Shown here: positions 10,318 through 64,000 of the stretch, piece after piece
How the letters are laid out: the number at the start of each line of letters is the position of its first letter
How positions within the stretch are numbered: the stretch's first letter is position 1
NCBI GenBank assembly: GCA_032718475.1
Contig: JAUCBJ010000246.1
Span: forward strand, 11,370-75,369
Direction of reading: 5' to 3'
From: Nemertoderma westbladi
Lineage: Eukaryota > Animalia > Xenacoelomorpha
DNA: 64,000 nucleotides
Made by a program: the position numbers and the translations under genes
Notes under the pieces: generated by a model
Database searches by the model: none
What the model was told of the DNA's origin: nothing
Seen by the model: only the letters and a program-made list of their open reading frames with translations

Positions 10318-12937
10318 CTGAAGGGTTTATGTTTACGGTTGGGAGGTAGCAGGACAATGCCTGAACATAGTGACGCTGCCCATGTCAGGCATATGACTGA
10401 TTGCCTTAAGGAATGGCAAACGGTTGTTGCGTCATCTCCTCCCTGCATGCCCGAACTGACAATGGACATACCGAGTGGGATAGGGGGTTGTGAATTCTCT
10501 TCGCAATTTACCAACATTGGGGAAATTGGCCGGCGGCGCCTTAAGGAAACTTTAAAAACGTTTCTAACTAAAGGAGAATGTTATGCCCGTGTTCCAAAAT
10601 TCAACTCTGTCCCTATTACCCGCGATGAACAATTTATACAATCCCGGCTTATAAACTGGACTAATTCGGACATACTAAGAAAATTTAAGAACTAATTGAG
10701 AAATTATTTGATATGGATGAAGAACAAATAAAGAACAATATACTCTTCAATTAATTAAATAAGCTAAAACGAAAGACAAATTAATATTATTGTGCAAGAA
10801 ACTACTGGCATTATAATTCAATTGATAAACAATATTAAAGTACTTATTATATAATAACTATGGCTTATTTTATAATTATGTTATCTACGTACTGCTACCA
10901 GTAACACGAACTTTAATGGATTATGCAATAAGTGCAAATAAATCGATTACAAAAAATAATCGATTAAAATAAAAAAAAATAGAACTTTTTCCCCAGGCAA
11001 CAAAAAAAAGTACCAATTTAAAAATAAGATTACGTATTACAATATGGGTATACGTATAAGGTTTAACGTCGAGATTCGGTTGTCTTTCTTGGTCGTTGCC
11101 CAGGCAGCCAGGATGTTTGATGCAATCAATGCGTCATGTGGTAGGGAAGATTGGCATTTGGTCGTATTGTGAAACTGGCGCTGCTAGATTAGCTGAAAAC
11201 TGAAAATGCTGAAAACAGTTGTGTAATTATATACCATATTATAAATTTCTTGGGCCTTATCTAAGATGACTAGATATAAATACATGAGTTAAAACTCTAC
11301 AGATTACAGATACATTTCTCCCCTTCATATGTGACAACATATTCACCGCCATTAATCTTCGGTTCACTCTCATCATAATCATCGACCTCATTAAGCAGTG
11401 AGGCTGAAATTAAATAAGAAAATTAAATGAAAAAATAATAAAAGTAAAGAAGAGTGTAATGGTGCTGGTGGCAAACCAAACCTCAACACTAATCTGTAGC
11501 GCTGGCTTATACGTAAAACCAATTGTAAACGCCATACAAAGAGATTGACTGCATCTCGTCTTTGTAAGTCATTTTATTTTATTGTAACGTTAATAATGTA
11601 GTTAACAAAGTAGTACTCAGCCCTAAGGCCATCAAAAAACGACACAAATAATAAAAACAAAAACGACATATACAAATATATTGAAACATGCTCAACATAC
11701 AGGTATGTATCGTACCCTAACCCTGACCTAACTGCCATACACTAAATGATACCAGTAGTATACTGCACAAAAGCTAACCCTATATTCTATAGAAAAATAT
11801 ATGACATTTTGTCGCTGTAAAGGGGTAGAACTCGGGAATAAATAATTAATTGTATCAAAAATATGGTTGCGTTTCGGTGTCTGAGAACCAGTACGCGGTA
11901 TTCTCGACACCTCATCAGCTGGACAAAGGATTATCCAAAACATATCTATATTGCACCAATGGCCTAAATAATCGCACCATGAACTCCTCAAACAGACATC
12001 AGAATCAGTAAATCAGTGATACCAATGGAAAAACTGGTAGGTTGCTGGGGCAAACACACACAGTATAAAAAAAATATATTAGATTTTACAATTTGTATTT
12101 ATTATTATTTATTTAAACTTTATAACTTAAAAATTGAAATTTAAAAAACAGTTTTAAATTTCAACTCGGTTGAAATTTGAAATTGGAAATAAATGTCAAC
12201 CCATTGATATACATATCTTTACCTTCAAAAAACACGCCGATGAAAAGATAAGAAGGATTTAAGTTCTCCAAGTGGATCAAGGCATGGTTCCGGTTCAGGT
12301 GGAACCTCCACAATAACATCTTTAAGATTGAGAACTTCTGATGACCCCCCTTCATTATATTGGTTATTATTACTACTAGTTATACTACTTTTTAATTTTT
12401 AGTTTTAATATGCCTGCCCAATGAATAAAATCTATAAAAAATCAAGGGTGCATTCATTTTACCGACTGATTAACTTATCTGTATACTACTACTACTACTA
12501 GGTCGAGCGAACTCGGACAGTGGAAATTAGATCCTTCCAGGCTTCCCGATTCTCCATAGTTGTCGCAATTTCGTTTCTCCCAAGTTCAGTATCCCTTTCA
12601 AGTTGATCTATATATGTTATGGCCGGTCGTCCACGACTATGCTTTCCATGAGTTGTTTGCCAGAGAAGTAGATCTGGTATGACCTCGTCTTTACTTCGCC
12701 AGCAGTGCCCACTGAATCTTAATCTGCGTTCACGAAGGGTGGTTGATACAGGTGGTATTGTATGATAAAGCTCGGCGTTTGTCATGTGTTGTCTCCAGCT
12801 GATGTTTAGGGCTGCCCTTAGTAGTATGTGTAGCAACCATCAATTCGTTGTTCAAGTGATTTAGTCAGTGTCCAGTGTTCTAACGATGTGAATGAGAACA
12901 TTGCTGTAAAAGATTTCGAAAAAAGTGTTACTTTTTC
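10318..12937 (+). repeat. Segmental duplication copy 1 (partner 57858-60285)
   Basis: Colinear near-identity including the RTE insertion and the first ~50 bp of BEL pol; ~190 bp (about 11366-11557) is absent from the partner. Confidence 0.92.
12485..12885 (-). mobile_element. 5'-truncated RTE-clade LINE
   Basis: LRAALNISWRQHMTNAELY...LRERRLRFSGHCWR...RGRPAITYIDQLERD...MENREAW; (TAG)n tail right after the stop. Confidence 0.85.
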
Positions 12938-15900
12938 TTGCACTCCCTTGCTCTATGTCCACTCATTACAAAACGCGAGCAGATATTATTGCTCAACGCA
13001 TAATCTATCTGATCTTGCCTAGGTAGCGCCTGCCAGTACCTGCAGTTCATGGTTTGATGAAGCGCATTTGCGTGTAGCTGGCATTTGCTCTTTGGGTCGT
13101 AGCCCTCTTTATACAGTGCATTGCGTATCGCAGTTGCGTTCGTACCAAAGTCCCTACTATTCTTATTGTTTGGATTCAGCCTACTGGACGTACTGGGGTT
13201 ATGTTTATTCGTGCTGTTATTGTTCCCCTGTCCGTTCCATGGTGTTGTCTCATCTTCGGCTAGCTGTGGACTTGCAGTCCCCTGCGTCGCTGCATATGGC
13301 AATGATTGCCTGAGTCTTGGTAATGCGTTTGATGTATTGTGCTCTGGTTTCGGTCTATGGTAATCCGTCTTCGGTCCCTTTCCCAGGCTATCTTCGCTGT
13401 AGACTGGGTCAGTTATTAGCTCAGCCTCGTAGTTTAAGAAGTTTGACATTTCTTCTAAACCCGGTTCCGCACCCTTCTTGTCTCGAGTGGAGAAAGCAAT
13501 TTTCCTCCACTTGTTGCGCATCCAACTCGGTAGTGCCTGCGCTATCGTGGTGATGTTATTGGACGCATTGAGCTCGTATGGCGCGTCTAGCGTCTTCAGC
13601 ACGATCAGTGCCTTTTCGACTTTGTTAGCGAACGTCTTAATGCTAACGGGATTATCCTGTAGGCCAACCGATGTTATGCCCCTCAGCGTCTGCCTGATGA
13701 TCTTGGCCGGGTGCCCGTATTCCCTATCCAGTGCCCGCCATGCTGTCGTGAAGCCGCCCTCTATTCCTTGATATTGCCTCACGATATCGTATGCTGGGCC
13801 TCCCGTATATACTTGCAGATACTTTAGGCACTCCGCCTGCGTCAAGTTTTTTGTTAGTATTTCGTTACTATACATGCGCCGAAACTGTAGATATTCTTCC
13901 GGCCTACTCCCATCGAATTTGAATGGTTCCACGGGTGGTAGCTCGATCCTCGTTTTCAACGCATCGATCAACGTGGCCATCCCCATCGCCTGCGCTTCCA
14001 ATGGATTCGACGGGTGCTGTATAGTTTCTCCTGTCTGGTGCGGTTCGTCCGTCCTACTTCTTGATCTTCTCTGACTTGGGTATGTCATCGGGGGTAGCGG
14101 CCCCCTCCATATTTCTGTGTCACACGACCTGTTTTCATCTAAGGGTCTCGTTGTTCTTGCTCCTATCGGGGTATATTGTTGATATTGTGATGGGGGAATG
14201 TCACCCTGTCCCCCCCCCCCGCCGGTATGTTTGGTACTGGAGTTGATGTTAATATATTGGGGCCCATACACCTATCCGCAATAATTCCCCCCTCCCCTGG
14301 GTATATGTTATGTCCCTGCATGCTGTAGTCATACTGCTGTACTGGTACTGGTATAGGCCTATCAGCTTCTGGCCTACTCGCCGGTATGTATTCCGCGACT
14401 TCCGGGTTTAATCCCGTTGTCCACGCTATCCTATCGCCTACATTGCCTCTCTCAGTATGGCCTATGGTATGTGCAGTAAGGCCTATAGTATGTCCTACAG
14501 TCTGCATGTGTCGCTCGGGATCGAAGTTTATTCTTCTCGAGTAGTCCTCCCCGCGGCTACCGTATTCTCGATCGGTAGGTATATTCCGTCGGAAAGTTTC
14601 TCTTCGACCCCCCTCTCTACTGTTCTCATCTTCGTACCGGTACATCGCGTACCCCTCTCTCGGCGCGTAGTGCACCTCACCGGGTCTCATCTCTCCAGGG
14701 CGACGGCAATCTCCCGGAGTCCAACCCCACTGACTCTCCGTTCTCATCTCGACTACCGACGGCTCGCTATCCGTCCTCGCTCCTCTACCGTTCGCGGCGA
14801 TACCTCTACTACTGTCTTCTCTTCTTCTCCTTTCAGTGGAATATTCCCGTTCGTGAGATCTCTCGTCGACCTCCCGGTTAAACCCCACTGTTCTTCTTCC
14901 CTCTTCTGATCGGGCTCGACGCTTCGTCCGCCCTCTTACGACGTCAACCTGTCTCTCTCTGCTCGGTCGCACGCCGCTGGGGATACTCGCAATCCCCCTA
15001 TTACTTTCCGTCGCCGGTTGTTGCGGTTTACCTATTTCGGCCCTCGCATTATCCGCTGATGGCTGTGGGACACTCTCTGCCCCCCCCCCCCCTTTCGCCG
15101 CTAACTCGCTGTTGTGGGGCTCTCGTAGCCCCCCCCCCCCCCCCCCCCACTCGCCACATCTAACTTCGCTATCCCTCACCCCGCTACTATATCCCTCTCT
15201 AGTCGACACATCAACCCTACCGCGGTCGGGTCTATTTACCCCCGCCTCTCCCTCTGCTATTGCGTGGCCTACCAGGCCCTCTGCACCCTGCCTACCAACT
15301 ATGTGGCCTACCAGGCCCTCGCTGGGTCTATTCAACCCAGCCACCCCCTGCCTACCAACTACGTGGCCTACCAGGCCCTCGCTCGGTCTACCTAACCCAG
15401 CTACTCCCTGCCTACCAACTACATGGCCTACCAGGCCCTCGTCTGTCTGGCCATACACGCCCGACGTGTTTACGTTAATAGCACCCATATCGGAAACGGA
15501 ACCAATTTGTTCGTTCGAAACAAACTCATTTGAATTACTTTGCGCGACTACACCATCTGAATTATTTTGTAAATTCGGGCTCGGATCATTATTTAAGTTA
15601 TTTGGAATATTTTGTGTAATTGCGTTACTTAAATTATTTTGTAAGTTCGAATTTGGGTTATTACTTTGATTATTTGGATTATTTTGCGTAGCTACATTAA
15701 TATTAGAATTATTTTCTACATTAATATTAGGATTGTTCTGATTTAAATTTAAATTACTACCACTAGGTAAATTATTTCCTGCAATAAAGGTTTGATTAGA
15801 ATTATCCCATACGGTACTATTAATATTAACCACGTCTACTGTACCATTATCATTATTACCCCCCCCCCCCCCCGCCCGTACGGTCACACCAGTTTTGGGT

Positions 15901-16642
15901 CTGTCGTGCGGTCCCTGTGAGTGGGGTATTAATAAATGTATCCACGGCCCCTGGCTCCCCTAGAATACTCGAGCCAGTCCCGCTCTCAGACGCCCCCGCC
16001 CGCACCCTTTGCAACTCGTGCGCGCGTCTAATCCTATGTTCCGAAAGCTCACTTTGGCGTCTCTCTAATTCCTTCTGCTCTCGCTCAGCTTCTGCCATTC
16101 TCCTCTCACACTCCCGCGCGTCCTGGCCAGCCAACTCTGCTACTCTCCTAGCGCTCTCCCTTCGTCTCGCTTCACGCTCTCTGCGTTCACTTTCCTCCCT
16201 CGCCTCACGTTTCTCGCGTTCCGCCTCATGTTCCTTTCGTTCACTTTCCTCCCTCGCCTCACGTTTCTCGCGTTCCGCCTCACGTTCCTTTCGTTCACTT
16301 TCCCACTTCGCCTCACGCTCCTTGCGTTCACTTTTCTCTCTCACCTCACGTTTCTCGCGTTCACTTTTCTCTCTCACCACACGCTCCTCTTGTTCCTTCA
16401 ACTCTATTTCATCATACTCCCTAAGGCTTCTCAAAGCCCTTTCGGCCTTCTCTCCGGTTTCTCTAATCAATGGCGCTTCCCTCTCTAGCCGCATTCTCCC
16501 CTCCTCTAGCCGTTTATCCATTTCCCTCTGACCTTGCTCTATCAGCTCGAGACGGTACGCGGCACCTGCCTCTCTCACCAGTCTTTCTTTCGCGGAGGAT
16601 GTAGCAGACTTATCGGTCACGACGGACTCCCTTCGCCTCCCC
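12928..16642 (-). pseudogene. gag: Element B gag, distal part (charged repeats, Asn-rich tract, DUF1759-like capsid, knuckles)
   Basis: ORFs 15856-16791, 14163-15887 and 12928-14271 are joined by frameshifts in poly-C runs; PFKFDGSRPEEYLQFRRMY...YLQVYTGGPA...LDREYG; CQLHANALHQTMNC. Confidence 0.85.
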
Positions 16643-17181
16643 TGTGACGGGATCCGAGAGTATCCCGGTTTATCCGGTGTTGTTTCGTACGCGTCCCCGC
16701 CGTGTGAATGAAAGAAAAGAGTTTGTCGTTCTTCCAGTGTTATTGATAATATGTATATGAGATAGACGGAGTAATGCAGTAATGATAGCACAGTATACCG
16801 GTAGTGATATGGTAGTATATATTGGTGACGGCGGTGATGGTCTTAACTGTCACCGTTCTGCCTGACTGTACTGAGATGACTGAATGGGTATTGCATCGAC
16901 CGGTAATATATATTGCACGGTGGCCTTATAACTCTACCTAGCCGATGCCTTCCCCCCATTGGCTAATATCCCTGTTGGCACCCTTTGGAGTGTTTCCCTT
17001 CACTCCTTGTGTTCTCTCTCGGTTAGGGGTTTGGCCCCTGACCCTCCATTGTGTGTTTCTCCTTCCCTTCCCACTTTATTGGGGTGACACGAGGTTGATA
17101 TTGGTAATCAACCTCGTGCTCCCAATATTGCTTAATGGCTCACTCTATGGGTTTGTGTTAGCGGAATTGGATAAGCTAACA
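16643..17181 (-). repeat. 3' LTR of element A
   Basis: Matches 23745-24283; only difference seen by eye is 16661 T versus 23763 G. Confidence 0.95.
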
Positions 17182-17219
17182 CTCCCCCCCATGCTATCTT
17201 CCCGGTAAGAAGATAGCAT
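17182..17219 (-). promoter_or_regulatory. Polypurine tract preceded by an 11-bp hairpin
   Basis: Minus strand ATGCTATCTTC-TTACCGG-GAAGATAGCAT-GGGGGGGAG|TGTTAGC. Confidence 0.85.
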
Positions 17220-17796
17220 CCAACTAAAGTGCGCTACAATTCCGCTGGAACTCGATCTATTATCGGGTGTGGGGTGGGGTTATTTTCTTGGAGTCGGCTT
17301 TCCAGGCCGCTCCCTATGGGTATGATGTCACTACCCTCTGGCGTCTCGTGTCGGGCCGATCGTGCGCTTCTCTCACACAATTTTTGTTTCCCCAACACTC
17401 TCGCCACTCTAACTTCGCTCTCTAACTCAACTCGCTCTCTCCCCACTCTTACACTCTCCCCACACCTGAATCGCACTCTAACTTCTCGCCAACAGCTCTT
17501 CTCACTATCTCCTCTCTACTCTCTGCCACTCCCTAAGGCCCTAATCTCTAATGCTACCCCTGTGCTATCATACTATCTACCTTATCTAAGGTCTAACTTG
17601 CTAACTATCTAACTCTCTAACTCTACTAACTCTAACTCTACTACTCTACTCTACTCTCTGCTAACTCTTACTACTTCTAGCTCTAACTAAAAGCCTCTAA
17701 CTTTCTACTAACTCTAACTAGAACTCTCTAACTTTCTGCTAAGTCTACTAACTCTTTTCTAACTCTGACTAAAATCCTCCAACTAACTCTATCTCT

Positions 17797-18415
17797 ATCT
17801 ACGTGGCGCTAATGGTGCCCACAACCACAACCGGTACTACGTACCCTCTTACTAACTCTACCTCCATCTACGTGGCGCTAACGGTGCCCACAACCACAAC
17901 CGGTACTACGTACCCTCTTACTAACTCTACCTCCATCTACGTGGCGCTAACGGTGCCCACAACCACTCTGCTACTGCTTCTACTCTGCTACTATCTTTCT
18001 AACTCTACTAACTCTCTACTATCTCTAACTCTACTAGCTGGCACCCTATGTGCCCTCTCTACTACTCTACTCTCTGGCACCCTATGTGCCCTCTCTACTA
18101 CTCTACTCTATCTACATCTCCACCTCAACTAATACCTCTATCTACGTGGCGCTTCCGGTGCCCACAACCACTCTCTGCTACTACTTTCTACGTGGCGCTT
18201 CCGGTGCCCACAACCACTCTCTTACTACTTTCTACGTGGCGCTTCCGGTGCCCACAACCTCTCTCTTACTACTACTTTCTACGTGGCGCTTCCGGTGCCC
18301 ACAACCCCTCTCTTACTACTTCTACGTGGCGCTTCCGGTGCCCACAACCACTCTCTACTACTACTTTCTACGTGGCGCTTCCGGTGCCCACAACCCCTCT
18401 CTTACTACTACTTTC
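17797..18415. repeat. Tandem arrays in element A 3' UTR (3 x 69 bp; 6 x ~43-47 bp)
   Basis: Core ACGTGGCGC-N4-GGTGCCCACAACC at 17801, 17870, 17939, 18144, 18190, 18234, 18281, 18324 and 18370. Confidence 0.9.
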
Positions 18416-19027
18416 TACTAACTATTATTTTTAATTATTTAATTATTTATTATTGTTTATTTAAATTAAATAATTATTTTTGTGGGAAGGGCGTCTCGCC
18501 CTCATTCCCACCCCCCTCAGTCCAAAATATTGGACGACTAAACCTCTTAACTAGGGCGATTCTTCCAACAGGCACTCTCCCACTGCTGCTCTTGTAGGTC
18601 CTGTAGGATTCGCCGCACTCTCTTCGCCAATTCCATCTCACCAGGAATTGGTTCTCCCTCTTCTGCCACCCTGAAATCGGGTCTCTCCGCCGCCTTCTTA
18701 ACTAGCTCGTCTCCTGGCATCAAAATGCCACCTCCCTCCTTGTTGTCTCCCGCCGGCAGAATGAATAGAAAGTGAAAGAACAGGCAAAACAGGAGGTACA
18801 ACACCAGTCCTACCCCTCTCCATCCTGCCTTCCTTCTCGACTTCCCCCTTGTCGGTATGCCTCTAAACCGGACCGGCATCTCTTCCGGACACTCCTCTAG
18901 ACACTCCTCCAGACACTCCTCTGGAGTGTTGTCCTCCGGACACCTCGCCGTCCGCTCCGCTCCATCTCCATACCGATGCTTGCTGGGAAACCTACTCTCC
19001 TCTGCCCACTTTCTTACTGTCACCTCC

Positions 19028-22000
19028 CTATCTGGCTCTACTATCTCCTGTTTCTCCTCTTCGTCCTCTGCGTCTGCGGTGCCTGGTATCATGCACCCAG
19101 ATGTCTCTGTCACACTGCATGGGATGTTGAGTTTTAACTGGGCCGCTAAGCGTCCATCCGAACGGCGTGAGGATCGCCGTCGGGTCCCGCTGCCTGTCTT
19201 CGCCGAAGACCGTCTTCGTTCTCTCGTGGGCCGTCGGGCAGTCCATCCCTACTATAATGGACACCTTCCTAACGTCCACCTTTGGTATTGAGAAATCGAT
19301 ACCGTCCAGGAATCTATATTGCTCGACCTCAATGTTGGTTGGTCGCCTGGCGTTGATGTTTATCGATTCTATGACGTGGATGGGGTCGATCGTCGCCCCA
19401 TAGTCATATCCCGGTGCAATCGCTGCTATCCTGCACCGCCCCGCCCTCGTCTCCAGGACCTCATCTTTACTCGAGACGGTAGTCACCGCCATTCTATTCG
19501 GCCTTGTCTTTAGCCCTATCTCTTCGGCCACCCAGTTCTCCACCAGCGTGAAGGCTGCTCCGCTGTCGACCAGCATTAATGTCGTTACTGATCGACCGCC
19601 CTCTCCTGATATCTTTACTGGTACTACCCCGAGTAGTACTTTTCTCTTCTTCTCCTCTTCTGTCGTGCTTGTGGCCATTGCCTGGCCTCCAGTCTCGGAC
19701 TCTCTAACTGCTGTTTCTCTACACTCTCCGGATCTGTGTCCTTCTACCACACATCGATGACATAGTCCGTTTGCGTCTGTGTAGGCTATACGATCTTGTT
19801 TGGGCAACGCTTGCCAGTGCTTACAACTCCTGGTCTTATGTGTTCCATCCCGATGTAATTGACATTCGAATCCTGGATTATAGCGTTCCCTGTATAGTCC
19901 CTCACGTATCGCGCCTAGGTTTATATGTACCGATTTAGTGTTTTGGTTGTCTGTATTCGGCCTACTGGGTACATTGGGATTATGTTTATTTATGGTGTTA
20001 TTTTCTTTCTGTCCCTGCCACGGTGTGGCCCTGCTACCAGCTAACTGTGGACTAGCAGTCCCCTGTGTGGCCGCATGTGGTAGTGATTGTCCTACTCTCG
20101 GGAATGGATCTGCAGGATCGTGTTCGGGTTCATGGCTTGTCCCCAAACTATCCTCGCTATAGACTGGGTCTGTTATTAATTCGGCTTCATAGTTGAGGAA
20201 GCTCGACATCTCTTCTAAGCCCGGTTCCGCACCCTTCTTCTCCCGTGTGGAGAAGGCTATCTTCCTCCACTTCCTTCGTAACCAGATCGGCAGTGCCTGC
20301 GCTATCGTGGTGATGTTGTTAGACGCGTTGAGTTCGTATGGTGCGTCTAGCGTCTTTAACACGATTAACGCCTTCTCGACCTTGTTTGCAAAGGTCCTTA
20401 TGCTAACGGGATTGTCCTGTAGGCCACCCGATGTTATGCCTCTCAGGGTTTGCCGGATGATCTTGGCCGGGTGCCCGTATTCCCTATCTAGCGCCCGCCA
20501 TGCTGTCGTGAAGCCGCCCTCGATGCCCTGGTATTGCCTCACGATGTCGTATGCTGGGCCTCCTGTATATACTTGCAGATATTTTAGGCACTCCGCCTGC
20601 GTCAAGTTCTTACTTAATATTTCGTTACTATACATGCGCCGAAACTGTAGATATTCTTCCGGCCTACTCCCATCGAATTTAAATGGTTCCACAGGTGGTA
20701 ACTCGATCCTAGTTTTTAACGCATCGATCAATGTGGCCATTCCCATCGCTTGCGCTTCTAATGGGTTCGATGGATGTTGTATAGTTTCTCCTGTTGGGTG
20801 CGGTCCGTCCGTCCTATCTGTTGTTGTCCTTGTTGCGTCGGATATATCATTGGGGGTAACGGCCCCCTCCATATTTCCGTGTCGCATGATCTGTTCTCGT
20901 CCAAGGGGTTCGATGTTCTCGCTCCTATTGGGGTATATTGTTGATATTGTGATGGGGGAATGTCACCCTGTCCCCCTCCCACCGGTATGTTTGGTACTGG
21001 GGTTGATGTTAATATATTGGGGCCCATACATCTATCTGCAATAATTCCCCCCTCCCCTGGATATATGTTGTGTCCCTGGAAATTATAGTCATGCTGCTGT
21101 ACCGGTACCGATATAGGCCTATTCACTTCTTGCCTACCTACCGGTATGTACTCCGCGACTTCCGGGTTTAATCCCGTCGTCCGCGCTACCCTATCGCCTA
21201 CTCTATCTCTCCCAGCATGGCCTATAATAGTATGTGCAGTAAGGCCTACAGTATGTCCTGCAGTCTGCATGTGCCCTTCCGAACCGAAGTTTATTCTTCG
21301 CGAATCTCGAATCTCCCCGCGACTACCGTACTCTCGATCGGCAGCTATATCACGTCGGGAAGTTTCCCTTCGATCCCCTATCCTGCTCTCGTCTTCGTAT
21401 CGGTACGTCCTGTACCCCTCTCTTGGTGTGCGGTGCGTTTCTCCGGGGCGACGGCAATCTCCCGAAGTTCGACCCCACTGACTCCCTACCTCCATCTCTA
21501 CTATCGACGGCTCGCTATCCGTCCTCGCTCTCCGGTTGCTCCTAGCAACGACTCTTCTACTATCTTCCTTTCTTCTCTCTTCGACCTCTCGGTTAAACTC
21601 TGCTAATCTTCTTCTATCTTCGACCTCTCTATTAAACTCTACTAATCTTCTCTCTTCTGACTGGGCTCGACGTTCCGTCGCCCGCCCTCTCGCGACGTCA
21701 ACCTGTCTCTCTCTGCTCGATCGCACGCCGCTGGGGATACTCGCAATCCCCCTATTACTCTCCGTCGCCGGGTGTTGCGGTTTACCTAATTCGGCCCGCG
21801 CATTATCCGCCGACGCCTGTGGGACACTCTCTGCCCCCCCCTCTCTCGCTACTAATCTCTCGCGGTGGGGTGCCCGTAGCCCCCCCCCACCCGCCACTTC
21901 TAACTTCACTATCTCTTACTACACTTCTGCGTCCCTCTTGTCGGACACTCTCTACCCCCTTTCTCTCGCCACTAATCTTCTGTGGTGGGGCGCCCGTAGC

Positions 22001-23682: not shown

Positions 23683-23744
23683 CTTCGTCTTCTGTGTTCT
23701 GTCTGTGTCTGGCAGTTACAGTTCGGCAGGCCTAGAGTTAAGAC

Positions 23745-24283
23745 TGTGACGGGATCCGAGAGGATCCCGGTTTATCCGGTGTTGTTTCGTACGCGTCCCC
23801 GCCGTGTGAATGAAAGAAAAGAGTTTGTCGTTCTTCCAGTGTTATTGATAATATGTATATGAGATAGACGGAGTAATGCAGTAATGATAGCACAGTATAC
23901 CGGTAGTGATATGGTAGTATATATTGGTGACGGCGGTGATGGTCTTAACTGTCACCGTTCTGCCTGACTGTACTGAGATGACTGAATGGGTATTGCATCG
24001 ACCGGTAATATATATTGCACGGTGGCCTTATAACTCTACCTAGCCGATGCCTTCCCCCCATTGGCTAATATCCCTGTTGGCACCCTTTGGAGTGTTTCCC
24101 TTCACTCCTTGTGTTCTCTCTCGGTTAGGGGTTTGGCCCCTGACCCTCCATTGTGTGTTTCTCCTTCCCTTCCCACTTTATTGGGGTGACACGAGGTTGA
24201 TATTGGTAATCAACCTCGTGCTCCCAATATTGCTTAATGGCTCACTCTATGGGTTTGTGTTAGCGGAATTGGATAAGCTAACA
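23745..24283 (-). repeat. 5' LTR of element A
   Basis: TGTTAGC...GTCACA on minus strand; TATA (~24014) 31 nt upstream of a TCAGT initiator (~23983). Confidence 0.95.
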
Positions 24284-24288
24284 TCCCC

Positions 24289-24981
24289 GTCCTACTAACT
24301 TTCCCCCGCTTCCCGGAACTTCCTCCGACCGACGAGGCCGAATCCTCGGGGTTAACCTCGGATTCGCCCCCTTCAGGTCTGTTCCAACCCACTAATTTTA
24401 TACCCCGGGCATCGACCAAGTATGGCCCTATGTACACTGACGCTACGCTAGGTTCCATACTCCCACATTCCCATAGTTCGAACAGTTCACTGGCAACCCC
24501 TTTCGCTCTCTCCTCGGCTAGTTCTCTCTGCCCGAAGCGCATCAGATAATATAAATGTCTGTCCGACTTACCTAGTCCTGACTTTAGTTTTACCTCGTCT
24601 ATCGTCTTCCCCTTTCTGGCCTCGTCTAGTAGTCTCCGGGTCGCGTTGTAGGCCCGTCGAAGTCGCTCAGAAACCCCGACGTCCTCGTCGCCGACCTCTC
24701 GTCCGTCTCTCCGGGTTTGACGTCGTACCGGCGGACCCACCGTCGCCGTTTCGGTGGCCCGTTCGTCGCCCTCGGCCTGTGGCTGGCCGGCGACACCAGT
24801 GCGTCGACCCCCGTCCCGTGTCGACTCGTCTCCGTTCCAGGCCCCCCTCGTCCTGAACTGCCGGATGACCCGTTACCGATGGGTCCGGCGTTGTGGGCCT
24901 GTATCGCCTGGTTGTGGCCTCGCGGATCGTTAGCTCTTCGTCCGGGGTCCGCGTCGGTGTTATCTCTCCCGACTGACTCAT
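24289..24981 (-). pseudogene. gag: Element B gag, N-terminal part
   Basis: MSQSGEITPTRTPDEELTIREATTRRY... homologous to element A MSRGGEATPPRTPDDDLTIREATARRY; ORFs 24667-24981 and 24234-24740. Confidence 0.85.
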
Positions 24982-25064
24982 CTCGGTTGGTGATCGGTGG
25001 AGTTCAGCTAGCTAGGGCAGCAGTTGTTGCAGTTTAACTAGGGCAGCAGCTCGGTTTTAGTTAC

Positions 25065-25603
25065 TGTGACGGGATCCAAGAGGGATCCCGGTTTATCCGT
25101 TGTTAGTTTACGCGTCCCCGCCGTGTATAAAGAGTGAATGAGTTTGTACTGTCCGTCGTATATAATATTTAGGTATACAGATATAGATATAGATGTGAGA
25201 TAATATTGTTGTATATGGAAGGCGGGATACGGTAACTAAAGTCCCGGTCCTTCCCTAGCTAAACTATGTAACCTAAACTAGCACCAGTATTGCACTGAGA
25301 TAACTGAATTGATATGATTACTGCCAAGTGGCTATATTGCACGGTTGGCCTTGTTACTCTACCTAATCGATGCCTTTCCCCCCTCTGATTGGTTGATACC
25401 CTTGTTGGCGCCCTTTGGAGTGTTCCCGTTCACTCCACCTGTTCTCTCTGGGTTAGGGGTTTGGCCCCTGACCCTCATTGTGTGCTTCTCCTTCCCATTC
25501 TTATTGGGATGGCACGAGTTGGTTAATTACCCAATCTCGTGGCTCCCAATATTGCTTATCGGCTTAACTTTATGGGGTGTTAGCGGGATTGAATAAGCTA
25601 ACA
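25065..25603 (-). repeat. 5' LTR of element B
   Basis: 539 bp with the same termini as the A LTRs and a diverged middle; TATA (~25336) 31 nt upstream of TCAGTT (~25305). Confidence 0.9.
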
Positions 25604-25992: not shown

Positions 25993-26016
25993 TAAACGTA
26001 CCTAATTTACATACGC

Positions 26017-26670
26017 ACTATTGTGGGCACTGAGGGCGCCACGTGAGGAGTTGAGGGAGGGTATGCACGCATACCGTGGTGGAAGGGTACACAGTACCGA
26101 AAGTACGTAACAACGTACTATTGTGGGGCCTGAGGGCGCCACGTGAGGAGTTGAAGGGGAGCTATGTACACATACCGTAGTAGAATGGTACATAGTACCA
26201 TAAGTATATAATACGTACTATTGTTTGGCACTGAGGGCGCCATGTGAGGAGTTGAGGGGAGGTATGTACGCATAGCGTAGTAGAAGGGTACACAGTACCG
26301 TAAGCACATAATAGGTACTATTGTGGGCACTGAGGGCGCCATTTGAGGAGTTGAGGGGAGGTATGTATGCATACTGTAGTAGAAGGGTACATAGTCCCAT
26401 AAATACATAATATGTACTAAAGTGGGCACTGAAGGCGGAACGTGATGACTTGAGCACTAGAGCACTTGATGTACGCATACTGTAGTAGAAGGGTACACAG
26501 TACCATAGTGAGGATTAGGAGGGATATATATTGCGTACGTCTGATGGGCACAATGTGCCAACGTACGTAATAAATACCAACACAAGCCGGGTCAATGGGA
26601 CCAATAATTATACGTAATCCGTACGTACAATAGTGGGCATTGAGGGCGCCACATGAGGAGTTGAGGGGGA
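26017..26670. repeat. 100-bp tandem array (5 units plus 1 detached)
   Basis: TTGTGGGCACTGAGGGCGCCACGTGAGGAGTTGAGGG variants at ~26021, 26121, 26221, 26321, 26421 and 26631. Confidence 0.88.
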
Positions 26671-27201: not shown

Positions 27202-27827
27202 GTGAAAGTAAAGTAAAAAGTTCGAATAAATTTCACCTTTAACAAATTATGTTATTTAAATGAAAATAACCTGTTAAAAACCTAAAATCTTTTTGCTAAT
27301 GATAGGAACCTAATTCGAGTCTAATAGGGTTAGTGAATTTTTTCATCTCATTTTTGAATAGGTTTAATTATTGTTTTAAACTATAAATTAAAAAACTTAC
27401 TTTTTGTTGCTCTCCTGTGAAGAAGAGCGATGTAGAAGAGCGAATTTCAGACCACCTTTACGAAAAGCAGGCAATGCATGAACAAGTTGCGATCGACCTA
27501 GACAACAGTAAAAAGTGAAAGTAAAGTAAAAAGTTCGAATAAATTTCACCTTTAACAAATTATGTTATTTAAATCAAAATAACCTGTTAAAAACCTAAAA
27601 TCTTTTTGCTAATGATAGGAACCTAATTCGAGTCTAATAGGGTTAGTGAATTTTTTCATCTCATTTTTGAATAGGTTTAATTATTGTTTTAAACTATAAA
27701 TTAAAAAACTTACTTTTTGTTGCTCTCCTGTGAAGAAGAGCGATGTAGAAGAGCGAATTTCAGACCACCTTTACGAAAAGCAGGCAATGCATGAACAAGT
27801 TGCGATCGACCTAGACAACAGTAAAAA
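27202..27827. repeat. 313-bp tandem duplication at the truncated 5' end of the Sola1-like transposase
   Basis: 27202-27514 is repeated at 27515-27827 (GTGAAAGTAAAG...GACAACAGTAAAAA). Confidence 0.92.
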
Positions 27828-28755
27828 ACTAGCCTCTGGTATAGAGTTAATGACGTTTGACCTGCAGAAAGTCTTGTCTACTCCAATGGGTGACAATATG
27901 TTGCTTGGCTATTCGCGCAAATTGGCAGTCTACAATCTGACATCATTTCTAAGTTCTAATAAAGCTGGGTACTGCTATATTTGGAATGAAACGATAGCTA
28001 AGCGTGGATCAATCGAAATAGCGTCTTTTATATACGACCAACTCCTTCGACTTGATGATATGGGAGTTCAGAATATCATTGCTCATTGTGATTCATGTGG
28101 TGGCCAGATCCGGAATCGTATGGTAATCGCGGCTGTGCTAACCTTCATGTACATAGCCAAACAAGTGACTAGTACCATCATCAAGTTTTTAATCCCTCGC
28201 CATACCTATCTTCAAGCAGATAGTATCCATGCCACTATAGAAAGGGCTTATAGTAAGCAGATTGTCTATGCTCCATCTGAATGGCCTGGTATTGTGGTGC
28301 GTGCTAGGCAATGCCCATGTCCCTATGAGGTGGTTAAAGTCACTAAAGACCACGTTCTGGATTGGAAGAAAAGTAGTCTCCTCTACCCTCTTCTACATTG
28401 CGACACGGGCAAACCGAAACCTAAGAAGATTCCGTGGGCAAATATTCGCGCACTTAAGTATGAGAAGGGTATAGATGGACACATAGCTGTGTCATTCACT
28501 ACGACATTTTGCAACAATGCGACATGGAAAACTATGAAATCAAGAAAGAATGAGAGGGCTAATCCACCTATTCCACCGAAAGCATATTCAAAGCAATTGC
28601 CCATATCTGCTGTGAAGAAGAAAGATCTCATGGATCTTTGCAGTAATGGGTTTATACCGCAAATCTTCCATAACGAATATGAAGCCATAACAACCAGCAT
28701 GGATGTTCCTGATGAACTGGATGAGACGGATGTGGAGGATGTGACTGACGATTGA
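27730..28755 (+). CDS. DDD transposase catalytic region, Sola1-like, 5'-truncated
   Basis: FDLQKVLSTP, YSRKLAVYNL, CYIWNETIAKRGSIEIAS, DSCGGQIRN, HTYLQADSIHATIE, KKKDLMDLC...FHNEY; superfamily call from recalled motifs. Confidence 0.75.
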   Translation: MKKSDVEERISDHLYEKQAMHEQVAIDLDNSKKLASGIELMTFDLQKVLSTPMGDNMLLGYSRKLAVYNLTSFLSSNKAGYCYIWNETIAKRGSIEIASFIYDQLLRLDDMGVQNIIAHCDSCGGQIRNRMVIAAVLTFMYIAKQVTSTIIKFLIPRHTYLQADSIHATIERAYSKQIVYAPSEWPGIVVRARQCPCPYEVVKVTKDHVLDWKKSSLLYPLLHCDTGKPKPKKIPWANIRALKYEKGIDGHIAVSFTTTFCNNATWKTMKSRKNERANPPIPPKAYSKQLPISAVKKKDLMDLCSNGFIPQIFHNEYEAITTSMDVPDELDETDVEDVTDD

Positions 28756-33772: not shown

Positions 33773-35017
33773 TGTAAAAGCTTTTGTGGGATAACTGATA
33801 CGTTTGCCTTTGCTGGCCAGTTCCCCCCAGGCGCTGGAATACTCTAAAAAGGTTTTCTAACTGTATATAGATTCCCCTCGCCCGCAAGGTACCTTTACAG
33901 GTGTTTTAACGGACATAAAAATCATTCTGCTATATACGTGTTTTGGCGGACATGGTAAGGCAAAAAACCTGTAATGCACCAACTACCTTTCACAGCTTAG
34001 CCGTGATAATTCATATTACGACATCTAACAGCTGGTTGCTGACATGGAAACAGCCATTGGATGTATGGTTCTTTGTTTGGCTTGAGCCAATCAGAGCGAT
34101 TTTTCCTGTCGACGTGTAGCTTTTAGTCGATCATAAGGAGAGTGTTCAGTCTTAAAGTTTCTTACTTGATACTTTGTTGTTATTGCTGTCTAAGCCAGAA
34201 ACACCGGCCTTTCGGTAAGAACTCTAGTAAACTGCTTGAATTATCGAGAGTATAAACTGTTACCTTAACGAATCGAACCTTAACGCATCTTAACATACTT
34301 ACTTAATTTAATTGCATTAATCATATTGTTTGTACTGTTATTTTACCGTCAGTTATTAATTGTACCTATTTGTTGATGGAAATATTGCTCTTTGGATAAT
34401 ACGGATAAATCACCCAAATTCCCAATTTTCTTGATACACTACAGGTTAGAGAGACCGGTTATACATAACAATTGCGATTTATATTAATGTGGTGTGTATT
34501 GAATCCAATGTTATTTAGCAGACCCTACGTGAGTCAATTACTGCTCTCTTTATGTGTGATCAAATATACTGACTGTCGGCAGAATAGTGTGTATGATCGT
34601 GATTGGTAACAAAGTATTTCCTAAAGAATACGCTTTATACTTTAATCATAAGCAGTATCGTTGCGTTTTAGTATAAGTCTTAGTTCTGTTTAAATAGATA
34701 AAGTGCCACGTCCTAAAGGAACTGTTAATATTTCCCGAAAGCCAATAATATCTGTCAGAGATTAATTTATTAACGATCTATCGAATGGTATAGTAGGTAT
34801 ACACTGCAACCTTACACTGCAATAATAAAATTCAAGCATCCGAATTCAGCCTCCCGGGTGTAGATCCATCGGGTGAATGATCGCGCATGGGCTGCCTTCG
34901 GCTAATGTTTTGCGTATTAGCATAAAATATTGTCGTATGCTAAAGTGGTTTTAATTAACTAAAAGACATATAAATTTTGGCAGGTTAAACTGCTAAAGGT
35001 CTTCAAAAGCGCGAACA
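33773..35017 (+). repeat. 5' LTR of element C
   Basis: TGTAAAAGC...GCGAACA; two substitutions versus the 3' LTR seen by eye. Confidence 0.96.
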
Positions 35018-35310
35018 GTAACAGTTTATAATCTTATTGCAGTAAGCAATAAGGTTGCAAAATACCGTAGTGACCGGTAAACCTGAACCGGTACTTCTGT
35101 AAGTCAGTAGGCCTAACTGTCATCACCGGTACCGGTACTGCTGTACAAGTACATTAGTATTATTCGATTTTGATTGTTGTATACCGGTAGGTCTTGGTAC
35201 TTAATCAGGGAACGGCCGCCCTGATTTTTTATTTGAGATTCTACTTATTTCTGTCGGTTTTATTTACTAGTAGGCTAATATTGAGCAGAAGGCGTGTGAC
35301 CCTGCTCAGA

Positions 35311-35884
35311 TTGTTCAGATAATTGTAGGCTGAGCTGCTGTCTGACTGTTGTTGAGTTTGGAGAGATTGCGGTGTGTGTAGAGTTTGTCTGATAAAGTGC
35401 CGTTAGTAAGTTGGGGCAGCCATAAGCGGTAAGGTCAATCCCCTCTTAAAGAATAAGTCGTACTACCGTGTTAGAACGCATACTAACTAACAGTTTCAGA
35501 GTCTGCATATACCGTAGTTTATTTAGGCTTGATCGTAGTCTGCCAGTGTTTCAGCCTGTGTTTGTTTGTGTGGTCTGTTCAGGTACCGTAATAGTTATTA
35601 TTCAAATATTTGTAGGCTGGATTGTTGTCTGGCTATTTTTGGGTCTGAAGGGATTGCTGCGTGTGTAGAGTTGGTCTGATCAAGTGCCGTTAGTAAGTTG
35701 GGGCAGCCATAAGCGGTAAGGTCAATCCCCTCTTAAAGAGTAAGTCGTACTACCGTGTTAGAACGCATACTAACTAACAGTTTCAGAATCTGCACATACA
35801 GTAGTTTGTTTAGGCTTAATAGTAGTCTGCCAGCGTTTGGTTTGTATTTGTTTGAGTATTCTGTACGGGTAGCGTAATATTTAT
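35311..35884 (+). repeat. Two tandem ~287-bp units in the 5' leader of element C
   Basis: GTGTGTAGAGTT...AAGTGCCGTTAGTAAGTTGGGGCAGCC... at 35374 and 35661. Confidence 0.85.
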
Positions 35885-37198
35885 TATTCAGAGTTTATGC
35901 GATTATTCGCAACATTCATGTCCCCAAGTTTATTCCTACAGTAATTGTGCTTGTTATACATACCGTTATAGTTAAACTAACCCCGGTACTACATCAGGGC
36001 TGCTTGGCGTAGGTAAAGACTGACGACTTTGTGCTTCGGTCACTCCAGCAGATGCCGTGGTTCTTTTAACTGTTCAAGTATATTTAACTACTGATTATTT
36101 GTTATACCGGTACTTGTACCTAATTTAGGGTTTAGTGTACAGTGCTTTCCGAAGTAATTAGTGTAGGCAGTATATTTGTATTGTAAAGTGGTTGATAGGC
36201 ACATTCGTTAGCTCTATTAGCTTCTGGGTAGGAACAATCCGTGATACATAACGTAGTACCTATAGCGATACGGTTATAGGTCGTCAGGCGGTGGTATTTT
36301 CCTATCTGGACAACGCAGTATATTTACTACTACTTATTATTTAAATACCGTAGTACCCTGTCCTTTGTAATAACCAGAAATCTAACCCTTTGTTGGACTG
36401 GTTTGTAGACTTCCTGTAAAATTACCCTAAAAATTTCGTACGTAATATTTTGTTGTGTTTAATTAGAGAATTAATCTCACCCGTATCGTAAGTAATTTGT
36501 AGTATTAAGTAACTTAGGTAAATTAGAATTATCAGTTTTAGTGTCAAATAAATAGCACTTCACTTAGAGGCGTTCAGCTTCTGTGTAGTGACTCCCCCAG
36601 AAATAATAACATTTATTTCAAATATTGACAAAACCCATTTAAACGGGTATATAAATATTATAAATCAACTCAAACGATTTATAAATAGTAGGCCTGCCAT
36701 ACAACAACTAGGTCTTACTATCAGTTGGACTACTGCTTAAATAACGGTAATAAAGTAAGTTAAAGTAACTAAGTAACCCTAAAATATTCAGGAATTCAAT
36801 TATTATAAAAATAATTGACATACCGGTACTTACCATAGGCTTATTATATTTATTTCTATAAATTTGAGCTGAAATCATACCGGTACTCTGTAATTAATTC
36901 TAGTTCATAATTATACTTACATGCTGTAAGTGTAAGCTGTATACCGGTATTCATTATAGGCCTACTATATATATATATATATTTGTGCTAAAATTATATA
37001 CCGGTACTCTGTGACACATCTAGTCTGTAATAATACTTATATATTATAAGCATACCGGTATTCTAATATATTGTGTATATATCACGTTACACCGAGTAAC
37101 GGTACCGGTAATAAATCGCTAGGCTTGCGGTCATACTGAATTACTAGACTTGCTTTAACTGAAAATATAGTAGTAGACATTCAACTGTATAACTAAAC

Positions 37199-40100
37199 AT
37201 GTCTGACACTCAGCAAAACCTGTCGGACAGTCTGATCGATACAACTATCTGTGATTCAGATAGGAGTGTGGAGCGAATAAGAAAGGAGTTCGGCTCACCT
37301 CCTACTGTAAAAAAGGTCATCCCTCCAGTAGTATCAGACCCTAGGCTAGTCCACCATAGGTCCATCATAGGCACTAGGGCACAGGTAAAACGGGACCAAG
37401 AGGCAGTTGTCTTATCGCAGCAACATCTTGGTCAAGAACCTACTTCCCAGCGACCCGATAGCTCCAGCAGTTCGGATACTGTAGAGCTGACTCCCGAACA
37501 TGGAGTGCAGATGTCTGATACAGTCTACTCGGACCCCCTTCTTACTCTTCCTGCTGCAGTGCTAACTACTATATTCATTGCGGTGGAGGAACATCAAGCC
37601 GACTGGGCGAAGAATAAGCGAGCGACCCAAGATAATTACGCGGGATACGCCAGGGAAGAATTGATATCTATTGTTGAATCACAATGGAACTTTCCCGGAC
37701 TCGGACTTCCGTTGGATATGTCCGAGGCTACTTGGGAAGAGCTACACAGGATGGGAGTGGCTAAAGATACAATGGATCCAGCTGTTTGGAAGAGGTCGGC
37801 AGCAGGATATGTGCAGGGATTCTTCGGATCCTTAGAGCGATTGGAAGAACAACTGTTTCGACAACCTCACGGACCTCAAGAGCAGGAAGAGCTGCTATAC
37901 CAAGTACGCGAAAGAACCCTACGCATTCGACTAATCCTCTCAGCCTTTGAGGAAACTTCCAAAAGAAGACAGGACACTTCGCTGCAGGTTGCTGTCAAAA
38001 CTTGGCTACATCGGGTAGATCTCAAAGTACAGGAAACAGCCCCGTGGAAATCCCAGCTGGCTGAGAGATCAACCTATGAAGAACCAACTGATGTCACCGA
38101 ACCAACTGATGTCACCCGTGCTCAAGAGGAAAGCGAAGAGGCCGCCGAGAAACCGCGAACTAGAGACGCTATCGACATTTATTTGTCCGACTATCAGCGA
38201 TTCCTAGGAGACGAAGAGTTGAGGAGACGGCTGTCTGGACTTTCCCCTAATAGTGAAGGAACCAAGCTTGTGTTGGACTCAATCGATGCCGAAATGTTAG
38301 CTGCAAACCAAGCTGAATGTGATGAAAAACTCCGCCTCACTAGAGTCCGAGAAGAACAAATAAAGAAAAGAAGGATAGAGGAACAAAAAACGGCGGCTAT
38401 GGCGGCGGCTATAGCAGATGCAGAAGCAGAAAGTAAAGCAGCAAAGGCGGTGGCAAAGGCAGATGCAGAAGCAGAAAGGAAGGCAGCGGCTGCAGATGCA
38501 GAAGCAGAAAGAAAGGCAGCGGCTGCAGATGCAGAAGCGGAAGAAAAAGCAGCAAAGGCGGTGGCAAAGGCAGAAGCAGAAGCAGAAATGAGAGCATTTG
38601 AGCAGACTGCTCAACTGGAGTTGGAGAATCTGCAAGAGACACAAGACAGTATAACTAAACAGTTTACTGCTAATCAAATGCAGATGATGAGAAAATCTAC
38701 TCCCAAGCGCCAGGGGTACACATCCTCGGAGGAAGGCGATACTACCGACCCTGAAGGCGGAGGAAATAGATCCCATCTAAGTAGACGTAGAAAAACATAT
38801 TACCGTCGCAAATTGCCTGATTTGCCCCCAGCTGTTAAAAGACAGCTAACTAGCACAGATTTAGGTAGTGCAGAACCCATGGAACAATTTATCCAGGTCA
38901 AAAGACTCCCTACTATAGTCGATGAACCTGAAATAATTAGGCCTGTAGTTCCCAAAGTCACTTCTGTGCTAGAGACCCCTACACTTCCAGAGCTTAACTC
39001 TAAATTCCCTTTACATAGCACTACACTGCCTGTACCCGGTGGAACAGTCCATGCAAATACCCCTGTCCAGATAGCAGAGAGAGAAATCAATAATTTGTCT
39101 CCCGTCGTCCCGCGTCAGCCCGCTACTATGTTGGCGACTCCCGCTTCGGCGGTTGAGTGGGTGGAAGAGGGACGGCGGGGGATGAATCTTCTGCTAGGAC
39201 AGATGCAGGAGACTGTCCACCAACTTAAGGGAACAGTGAGGGAAGGTAGAGCAGAGTTGCAAGAAGTGCAGCAAAGTATCGCGCTAGAACGCGACAAATT
39301 AGTCAATATACAAAAAGGCATACCAATGCCTCCTGTAACATTGTGTCAACCCGTTAGGTCTGAAGTATTACATGCGCAAGGTGTGGAGCCTACACGCATC
39401 TATACTGCTAGTGAAGTTGAAACTCCTATAGCAAACCCTATTAAGGGTGATTATAGACCTGTTATTAATGATATTCCCTATAAACCTGATAATGATCCGA
39501 GAAATTTATATACCGATAATTCGATATTAAATAACACGATGGCCCAAGAAAGCTTTACGCGTCAGATGGCTAGAACAGAAGCCCGCCAAGCGGTCAAAGT
39601 GGGAGAGATCGTCAAATTCAATGGAGATGAGATGAAATGGTTACCTTTCAACGAATATTACAAAGATAGCATACAGAACTCTGTACTATCTAACGGAGAG
39701 AAACTTAGATTCCTCATCAAGTGCTTGGAAGGACCTCCCAAGTTAATGGCGTTAAAGTTTATTGGACATCCAGAAGGATTAAGACAAGTTTGGGATACAT
39801 TAAACATCAGGTATGGTAACAAAGATAACATAGCTAAGTATTTGTATACAAAGTTAGTAGCCCCCCGACACTTCCTTAGTAGTGGGATTATAGAGTTTTC
39901 CGATGAAATACAAGAGATCTGTAGACAACTGGACTGGTTAGGTAAGTCGCACGAATACCAGAGTTCCATGGTTATTGGAGCCGTAGTCTCTACTTTACCA
40001 AAGGGTGGAGTATGTACACGCTGGGACAAGAAAGTGTTGTACATGAATGAACAACAACGACGAAGTCCTACCATGGCTGATCTCATGTCTTTCTTAGATG

Positions 40101-51063: not shown

Positions 51064-51141
51064 CTGTTTAGAGTATTTTTATATTTTAGAAACTGTGATT
51101 TTGTATATTTTATAGACTTAAATCCCATTTTCTGGGAGCGG

Positions 51142-63200: not shown

Positions 63201-64000
63201 TATATCTGATCCCTCATACGGAAGCGATGACGAAACATATGTTAGGAAACAATATTTACATATTTCAACATTGATTAGTAACTTCTGGCGACATTGGAAC
63301 CAGGAGTACCTGGTAGCACTACGTGAAAGACATCGATGTACAACATCTCTGACTGAAGTCATTCCAAAAGTCGGAGACATTGTTCTAATCGGCAGCGATA
63401 ACCTTCCTCGGATGCAATGGCCGTTAGGGAGGATTATAATGCTCCATCCAGGACAGGATGACTATGTACGTTCCGTTTCATTGAAAACTCGTCATGGTGT
63501 TTTGAAACGCCCAGTGAAACGCTCTTATCCATTAGAAATTAACCATTCCGAAATGCTAGTTGACGAAAATGGCGATCTTCAAAGCACATCGGAATCCACT
63601 GACAAGATTTACAGAGAACGGGAGAAACGTACATGTGCAACGATCACGCGTAAAAATATAGAATCATGTATTAAAAAATTGTCAAGTGACGATTCAGATA
63701 GCGAGGCATAAAATTTAACTAAAAAGTAACAAAATATCAGTTTACAATAAATTATACATATTTTTATTTAACCCGTTGACAAATATACAGTAGTTAGATA
63801 TAAATTATTTTTCTATATGTAATTTTTTTTTTTTCGTTAATAATACAAATTGTTGATTTGTACAGATTTGTAGTGTATGAAAGTTATTAAATTTAAGCAT
63901 ACATACGCATAAAGTTGTCATTGTGTGATATACGGTATATATATTTTTTTGTCATAAATATTTTGTTTTCGGAAATTTTTTTTTTGGTGGTGGAGGATGT
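60234..64000 (+). mobile_element. pol: BEL/Pao element D: degraded pol (RT-RH-IN), PPT and start of 3' LTR
   Basis: YLPHRGV...LRIVYDCS...ADIEKAFLQI...FGATCS...YVDN; FSDAS, NPADLLT; GVDYTG, SDNASTF, GGTWERLV; several stops and frameshifts; GGTGGTGGAGGA|TGT at window end. Confidence 0.92.

Follow-up and report, generated by a model that had tools for sequence, protein, structure and literature searches.

How does a retrotransposon prime reverse transcription when its leader carries no tRNA-binding site? This question is raised by three LTR elements, called A, B and C here, in the 64,000-nt stretch of Nemertoderma westbladi DNA that was analyzed (the window). Elements A and B are nested BEL/Pao LTR retrotransposons on the minus strand with LTRs of 539 nt each, and element C is a distant BEL/Pao element on the plus strand (33773-52386). 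The leaders of all three begin with GT, not TGG, so that a tRNA site is absent, and no tRNA genes were found within the 64-kb window. In this study, we propose that A and B prime with an internal piece of their own RNA, which would start at an initiator, be cut at AC|C and be held in place by an outer helix; judged from sequence and predicted folds, this reading has a little better than an even chance of being correct. The elements are laid out as follows:

23745..24283, minus strand: 5' LTR of element A (539 nt, TG...CA ends, one base different from the 3' LTR)
16643..17181, minus strand: 3' LTR of element A (539 nt)
about 17182-17190, minus strand: G-rich polypurine tract of element A, preceding the 3' LTR
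19028..20962, minus strand: gag-protease ORF of element A (DUF1759, aspartyl protease)
25065..25603, minus strand: 5' LTR of element B (539 nt), the sole B LTR inside the window
12928..14271, minus strand: gag of element B (DUF1759), which resumes past the A insertion
33773-35017, plus strand: 5' LTR of element C (1245-nt LTRs, two sites different between the copies)

The 5-bp target duplication GGGGA flanks element A (24284-24288 and 16638-16642), hence A has inserted into B, and B ends near 12937 at another repeat. The gag proteins of A and B share 76% identity, and Pfam recognizes PF03564 (E 4.6e-11) and PF13650 (E 3.3e-6) in A and PF03564 (E 9.9e-13) in B. RT, RNase H and integrase were found neither in A nor in the windowed part of B; without an RT, A presumably must be copied in trans. 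A and B are therefore classed by their gag-protease alone, as what appear to be defective BEL/Pao members. Element C, flanked by the target duplication ATAAT, carries a Pao-type RT, RNase H and integrase (PF05380, PF18701 and an integrase zinc finger), and its pol is 22-49% identical to 60 BEL/Pao proteins, the best named ones being from cnidarians and molluscs. For all three elements Pfam gives BEL/Pao families only, with no Ty3/gypsy chromovirus proteins.

The sequence that replaces the tRNA site matches the LTR of the element itself:

23736..23744, minus strand: primer-binding site of A, abutting the LTR, without TGG
23942..23950, minus strand: putative primer arm of A (+34..+42; predicted cut 23942/23941)
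25056..25064, minus strand: primer-binding site of B, abutting the LTR, without TGG
25232..25240, minus strand: putative primer arm of B (+66..+74; predicted cut 25232/25231)
34251..34263, plus strand: putative primer arm of C (13 bp, ends AC|C)
35018..35030, plus strand: primer-binding site of C, abutting the LTR, without an adjacent outer helix

A segment of the element's own LTR, ending AC|C, is complementary to the 9 nt (A and B) or 13 nt (C) that come first past the LTR, with no spacer between primer site and LTR. An earlier reading of the locus, made from sequence only, had placed the complementary segments at +34..+42 (A) and +66..+74 (B), and these coordinates are confirmed. Dinucleotide shuffles reach the anchored match in 9/5000 (A), 5/5000 (B) and 1/5000 (C) cases, and the window background for such matches is 0.6% for 9-mers and 0.03% for 13-mers. 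Between A and B, both partners have changed in six of the nine primer pairs, and every pair is still Watson-Crick when the comparison is anchored at the primer site (the LTR end), as was done for all counts of A/B double changes given here; sequence-only alignments put the two primer arms at different positions, so these counts depend on the anchoring. A primer built by splicing was considered for A, B and C and rejected: over all GT/GC-AG pairs, with purine-rich acceptors, the best junction match against the contiguous one was 10 vs 9 in A, 9 vs 9 in B and 16 vs 13 in C, not beyond chance, and a strict splice scan of the three elements returned contiguous matches only.

Close relatives of A and B were not found in a protein search (0/7728 candidates), in viral contigs or by metagenome pattern, so that covariation among close families rests on two sequences; as for BEL relatives in viral contigs, 0/13 pattern matches were confirmed. 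More distant relatives were collected with an alignment of eight proteins related to C pol, which yielded 78 metagenome loci (drawn from the 80 best among 390 confirmed, out of 590 pattern matches listed), or 49 families at 85% identity. The distance is considerable, the A gag-protease being 21-26% identical to its best 12. Ten families have an LTR end set from two copies (approximate for L050 and L064), and eight of them show a match to their own LTR, at offsets 2-4: in five it spans a GT..YAG junction (11-15 bp), in three it is contiguous (10-12 bp); the remaining two show 10-bp junction matches under relaxed splice rules. The leaders of other families score lower, except within the trio L005, L031 and L050, whose junction sequence is shared (for L005 up to 12 vs 11). 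When 43 further regions were scanned open-ended, 23 had a match of at least 9 bp; 18 of these were shuffled, and in 15 none of 20 shuffles was as long as the observed match, while in three 1-2/20 reached it.

We kept 24 families, 13 contiguous (unspliced) and 11 spliced, the latter with 4-10 primer bases in the upstream exon. Dropped were the same-family duplicates L005, L007, L011, L048 and L068, as well as L033 and L069, which by eye do not lie at the LTR end. The other 25 families lacked an LTR plus leader or a match; L019, L023, L056 and L058 were matched later and stand outside the helix tests. A C follows the primer in 20/24 relatives, in agreement with the AC|C end claimed before; since the open scan required a site starting with GT or AT, the AC itself is partly built in and the following C is not. 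The labels spliced and contiguous need at least three changes on a quick tree. Neighbors differ in two instances (L058 vs L059, L038 vs L034), one having its primer across an intron and the other contiguous, which suggests intron loss or gain at the primer site.

Where the primer lies relative to the start of the RNA depends on the promoter, for which the following motifs were recognized:

23980..24064, minus strand: predicted promoter of A (CCAAT 24064-24060, TATA 24014-24007, TCAGTC, predicted +1 at 23983; motif only)
25302..25392, minus strand: predicted promoter of B (CCAAT 25392-25388, weak TATA 25336-25329, TCAGTT, predicted +1 at 25305; motif only)

As the sequence-only reading had noted, a TATA box lies 31 nt upstream of a TCAGT initiator in both LTRs: TATATATT at 24014 precedes TCAGTC in A (A at 23983) and TATAGCCA at 25336 precedes TCAGTT in B (A at 25305), each with a CCAAT box about 80 nt upstream of the initiator. 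B contains one such combination and A three, overlapping at a single site (TATA 24014/24012, start 23983/23979). The TATA of B is weak and fails the strict TATA rule, chance TATA-like words are common in AT-rich LTRs, and a TATA..initiator pair is absent from element C. The distance from initiator to LTR end is kept (239 vs 241), though the primer arm has moved by 30-32 nt between A and B. Among the relatives, a strict TATA occurs in 6/24, where the nearest copy lies at -49 to -101 from the primer; 18/24 are without one in the upstream sequence covered (at most 200 nt; 33-69 nt in three). In addition, 11/24 relatives match only across a splice junction, which requires RNA upstream of that junction. 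The earlier claim of an internal primer is thus favored at the level of motifs and sequence: the fixed initiator, the spliced families and the remote TATA boxes point to a predicted primer inside the RNA rather than at its 5' end.

Some observations on the same region stand apart. The distant spliced family L050 (1430-1470) shares the GCAATATA box with A and B; an initiator-like TTAGTC follows 25 nt later, and the primer 117 nt after that. In B, short tandem duplications occupy R and the leader (24975-25305, minus strand), one of them a second, bulged primer-arm copy near 25277-25268; such duplications may have been a route by which the primer site shifted. A primer formed as an RNA 3' end by a polyadenylation cut was rejected, as neither AATAAA nor ATTAAA occurs downstream of the initiator in A or B.

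Beyond the primer helix, the leader pairs a second time with the LTR, further upstream:

23960..23975, minus strand: 5' arm of the outer helix of A (+9..+24)
23713..23729, minus strand: leader arm of the outer helix of A; the first ATG follows at 23682
25253..25266, minus strand: 5' arm of the outer helix of B
25030..25043, minus strand: leader arm of the outer helix of B; the first ATG follows at 24981

In B this helix has 13 bp (14 with a terminal U-G) and 12-nt spacers on both sides, just as the sequence-only reading described it. That reading also had the leader of A pair with a cap-proximal segment, which we find as 14 bp with a 2x2 loop and a bulge and with spacers of 9 and 6 nt. The spacers beside the primer helix are unpaired in both elements. 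The outer helix in A and B is family-specific: the duplex energy between the part of R upstream of the primer and the leader reaches z -2.4 in A (12/1000 shuffles) and -3.4 in B (2/1000), with -0.15 and -0.75 for swapped partners, and fixed windows of 33 x 45 nt give -2.4 (A) and -3.0 (B) for own pairs and -0.1 and -0.9 for swapped ones. For both leaders, pairing is best in a 33-nt LTR window just upstream of the primer arm. Over 13 primer-anchored positions, A and B differ by three pair-preserving double changes and two mismatch-to-pair changes, counts to be read with the fact that sequence-only alignments register the outer-helix arms of the two differently. A structure conserved although its sequence is not, as had been suggested, is half right: the structure recurs in A and B, but the leader arms share 13/18 bases and the sequence is partly conserved. 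The primer duplex alone amounts to -9.5 (A) and -7.3 (B) kcal/mol, and together with 33 nt upstream and 45 nt downstream to about -33 and -36 kcal/mol. For the first-AUG region of A and B, the strongest 12-mer partners begin between -3 and +3 relative to the initiator (weak, about -8 kcal/mol). In element C an adjacent outer helix is absent (rank 830/1213 windows).

Two further structures flank the predicted cut:

23930..23941, minus strand: stretch of A 3' of the cut, with its complement in U5 at 23805-23794 (Tf1-type inner helix)
25222..25231, minus strand: stretch of B 3' of the cut, with its complement in U5 at 25121-25113
23750..23769, minus strand: U5 terminal hairpin of A (8 bp)
25070..25090, minus strand: U5 terminal hairpin of B (8 bp)

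The inner R/U5 helix, unmentioned in the earlier reading, is present in both elements with z about -2 and is interchangeable between them. The hairpin that this reading had seen next to the site at both U5 ends is there as well, with z -3.7 (A) and -4.4 (B) against mononucleotide shuffles. The sole difference between the two LTRs of A, at 16660, falls within this hairpin and breaks one pair in the 3' copy. In the modeled folds, the presumed cut site would sit at a three-way junction of primer helix, R/U5 helix and U5 hairpin. Folded from +1, the primer helix of A has a probability of 0.33-0.44, and 0.98 if the RNA starts at the primer; it competes with another fold, and enforcing it costs 2.1 kcal/mol above the minimum. 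The primer helix of B is part of the minimum fold, with a probability of 0.84 from +1 and below the 0.3 listing threshold if the RNA starts at the primer. An Rfam search gave one chance-level match (E 0.71), outside the structure. A general U5 terminal hairpin reached z < -1.64 in only 3/24 relatives (last 45 nt), and the inner R/U5 helix was not enriched in unspliced relatives (p 0.29) and gave p 0.011 in spliced ones, as one of seven tests per group.

These structures could also be read with another start site. Transcription would then begin at the primer arm and yield a short primer as in Tf1, where the primer consists of the RNA's first 11 bases, cut by RNase H (accessible part of PMC7175516); the 3' copy of U3/R would pair with the leader, circularizing the RNA and aiding strand transfer. 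A pairing of this kind, between the primer-site vicinity and the other RNA end, is described for Ty1 as CYC5/CYC3 in the accessible part of PMC7969010; Ty1 is tRNA-primed, and the likeness is relevant only under such a start. The upstream arm would occur in the 3' LTR whatever the start site, thus its co-variation is no proof of a long primer. Moreover, A has an initiator-like ACAGTT exactly at the first base of the primer helix, which folds at 0.98 from there. Against this, no TATA lies 31 nt upstream of the primer arm of A or B, the nearest initiator-like site in B leaves a 6-nt primer, the primer helix of B drops out when folded from the arm, and 0/24 relatives have a strict TATA at -24 to -36. 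The splice-junction primers in 11/24 relatives would furthermore need first exons of 4-10 nt, and exons so short are unusual in this position. We therefore hold a start at the arm to be unlikely, and the internal primer held by an outer helix remains our preferred reading.

That reading gains from the relatives, in which outer pairing was assessed by a swap permutation on composition-centred duplex energies (33 nt by the primer x 45 nt by the site). The 13 unspliced families prefer their own leader (p 0.0008-0.001; 0.014 and 0.010 after skipping 5 and 8 nt beside the primer helix), and shifted-window controls for these families give p 0.98 and 0.95. As a group, the 11 spliced families do not prefer their own leader (p 0.12; 0.5-0.66 with skips), and single families with z < -1.64 number 6/13 unspliced and 2/11 spliced. 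Seven of the 13 unspliced families sit in one clade of the quick tree, in which C is on a long branch, hence the families are not independent. A shorter primer helix goes with stronger outer pairing (rho 0.52, p 0.009, n=24), a link that weakens with a 6-nt skip to rho 0.32, p 0.12 in the relatives and 0.46, p 0.017 when A, B and C are added. The recurrence of the second helix among related families, put forward earlier as a test, is therefore found in the 13 unspliced families but not in the 11 spliced ones or in C: within the group the outer helix is optional, and it is missing from families whose primers are longer and, often, built by splicing. The relatives show no enrichment for pairing of the leader with downstream LTR sequence (p 0.7, over the last 150 nt).

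An optional helix might equally serve another purpose, with self-priming real and the primer internal: as a translation or packaging switch it would close the cap onto the gag AUG without a role in priming. In A and B the predicted rod does extend between about +1 and the first AUG, and many families do without the helix. Nevertheless, the pairing in the relatives is confined to the 33 nt by the primer and the 45 nt by the site, as the shifted controls indicate, and it tends to accompany short primers, so we consider a pure switch improbable. Similarly small is the probability we assign to the absence of self-priming, in which case the match would be a structural helix masking the site and the true primer a host RNA, e.g., a tRNA fragment. 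Belpaovirids are indeed described as tRNA-primed by ICTV (PMC8742986). Yet the sites differ among families while each fits its own LTR to the first base over 9-15 bp, splice junctions included, the sites of A, B and C never start with TGG, and the 3' end is AC|C in most. Very improbable is, finally, that the outer helix is a decaying relic of plus-strand read-through over an unremoved long primer, which would leave its complement in the leader: the leader looks like a degenerate copy, inverted, of the stretch from +1 to the cut, and the title of a 2006 report by Atwood-Moore is said to state that the Tf1 primer is not removed, but read-through would repair the spacers first, and these are unpaired in A and B while the outer helix keeps its three double and two mismatch-to-pair changes (primer-anchored). 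Such a relic likewise implies a long internal primer.

For the internal self-primer of A and B, the following course can be envisaged. Transcription would start at the conserved initiator (predicted at 23983 in A and 25305 in B) and the 5' UTR would fold into a rod with the cut site where primer helix, R/U5 helix and U5 hairpin meet. A helper element may then supply the RT whose RNase H cuts at AC|C, by analogy with Tf1, to give a capped primer of roughly 42 nt (A) or 74 nt (B). After the cut the primer would be a separate molecule, which the second helix could hold on the template, and extension would proceed from the 3' AC directly into U5, with no spacer. Beyond the complementarity itself, we infer all of these steps. 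The sequence-only reading had the second helix guide cleavage, which is less likely: the helix is situated on the side of the primer helix that faces away from the cut, and a 9-bp primer duplex is weak and becomes far stronger with its flanks, both of which fit a tether better than a guide. More tentatively, at slightly less than even confidence, a widespread BEL/Pao branch of marine animals may prime with a long capped internal piece cut at a conserved AC|C, its stability being provided by a short helix plus upstream tether in unspliced families and by a longer splice-junction primer in the others.

The feature is real and statistically supported, and would work like Tf1 self-priming, yet outside that group. 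According to the accessible parts of PMC7175516 and bioRxiv 10.1101/2022.12.06.519325, Tf1, Tf2, Tj1 and Tosmo share with A and B the absence of a tRNA site, LTR-complementary bases after the LTR, extra helices and a 3' OH freed by cleavage (predicted in A and B); the self-priming of Tj1 and Tf2 resembles that of Tf1 (accessible parts of PMC4600332, PMC5341516). Tf1/sushi elements are Ty3/gypsy chromoviruses, whereas A, B and C belong to BEL/Pao. In Tf1 the primer is the 5' tip and two extra duplexes use LTR sequence downstream of it (accessible part of bioRxiv 10.1101/2022.12.06.519325), whereas the predicted primer of A and B lies 34-74 nt inside the RNA and the leader pairs upstream of it. 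The description "unlike Tf1" given to A and B before is hence apt for the predicted internal position and the upstream pairing; it overlooks that Tf1 also needs two extra helices, where A and B carry one such helix plus the U5 hairpin. The Tf1 pretzel, with both flanking duplexes downstream, does not occur in A and B, in which the inner R/U5 helix alone fits it. Element C does have a downstream LTR partner for its leader, at 34790-34828; leader positions +14..+42 can pair with LTR 34805-34825 or fold on themselves.

With Belpaoviridae (Semotivirus) the elements share the DUF1759 gag, the protease, TG..CA LTRs, the 5-bp target duplication and the polypurine tract. The site given for BEL/Pao by ICTV, 18 nt for tRNA-Arg or tRNA-Gly, is absent in A, B and C, whose leaders begin with GT instead of TGG, and BEL/Pao replication is described as poorly understood (PMC8742986). 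Self-priming is also predicted for the plant Tcn1 gypsy clade and TAR copia lineage, thus outside Tf1/sushi, and their signature is of the same type, with at least 10 bp matching the LTR from a start 0-5 nt past its end; these are other superfamilies, and the accessible part of the paper gives neither a primer position relative to the start site nor a second helix (PMC6317226). In our literature search, with most subscription papers outside its reach, no paper was found on BEL/Pao self-priming, an internal self-primer or an outer-helix clamp: "PBS" and "tRNA" are absent as terms in PMC3118150 and PMC554778, and the accessible parts of PMC3601003, PMC2864245, PMC6934838 and PMC13524379 contain no self-priming BEL/Pao element. 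If true, an internal tethered self-primer would be a second tRNA-free priming architecture of an origin separate from Tf1/sushi, and a primer would not have to be the 5' tip of the RNA. It would also account for the copying in trans of an element that has no RT, despite a primer sequence unlike that of its relatives. LTR finders that seek tRNA sites would probably miss or under-annotate such elements.

The window holds further repeats around these elements. Element C contains an in-frame stop (40103-40105) and changes frame near 42301-42325; its additional 1423-codon frame (46792-51063) has zero Pfam matches. A 351-codon frame at 27700-28755 (plus strand), also with zero Pfam matches, presumably resembles a DNA transposase. 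A fourth BEL/Pao pol, interrupted, lies at 60388-63711 on the plus strand (RT, PF05380, PF18701). Tandem repeats with a common GCGCCACGT core occur both in the 3' non-coding region of A (17700-18420) and upstream of the B LTR (26011-26507).
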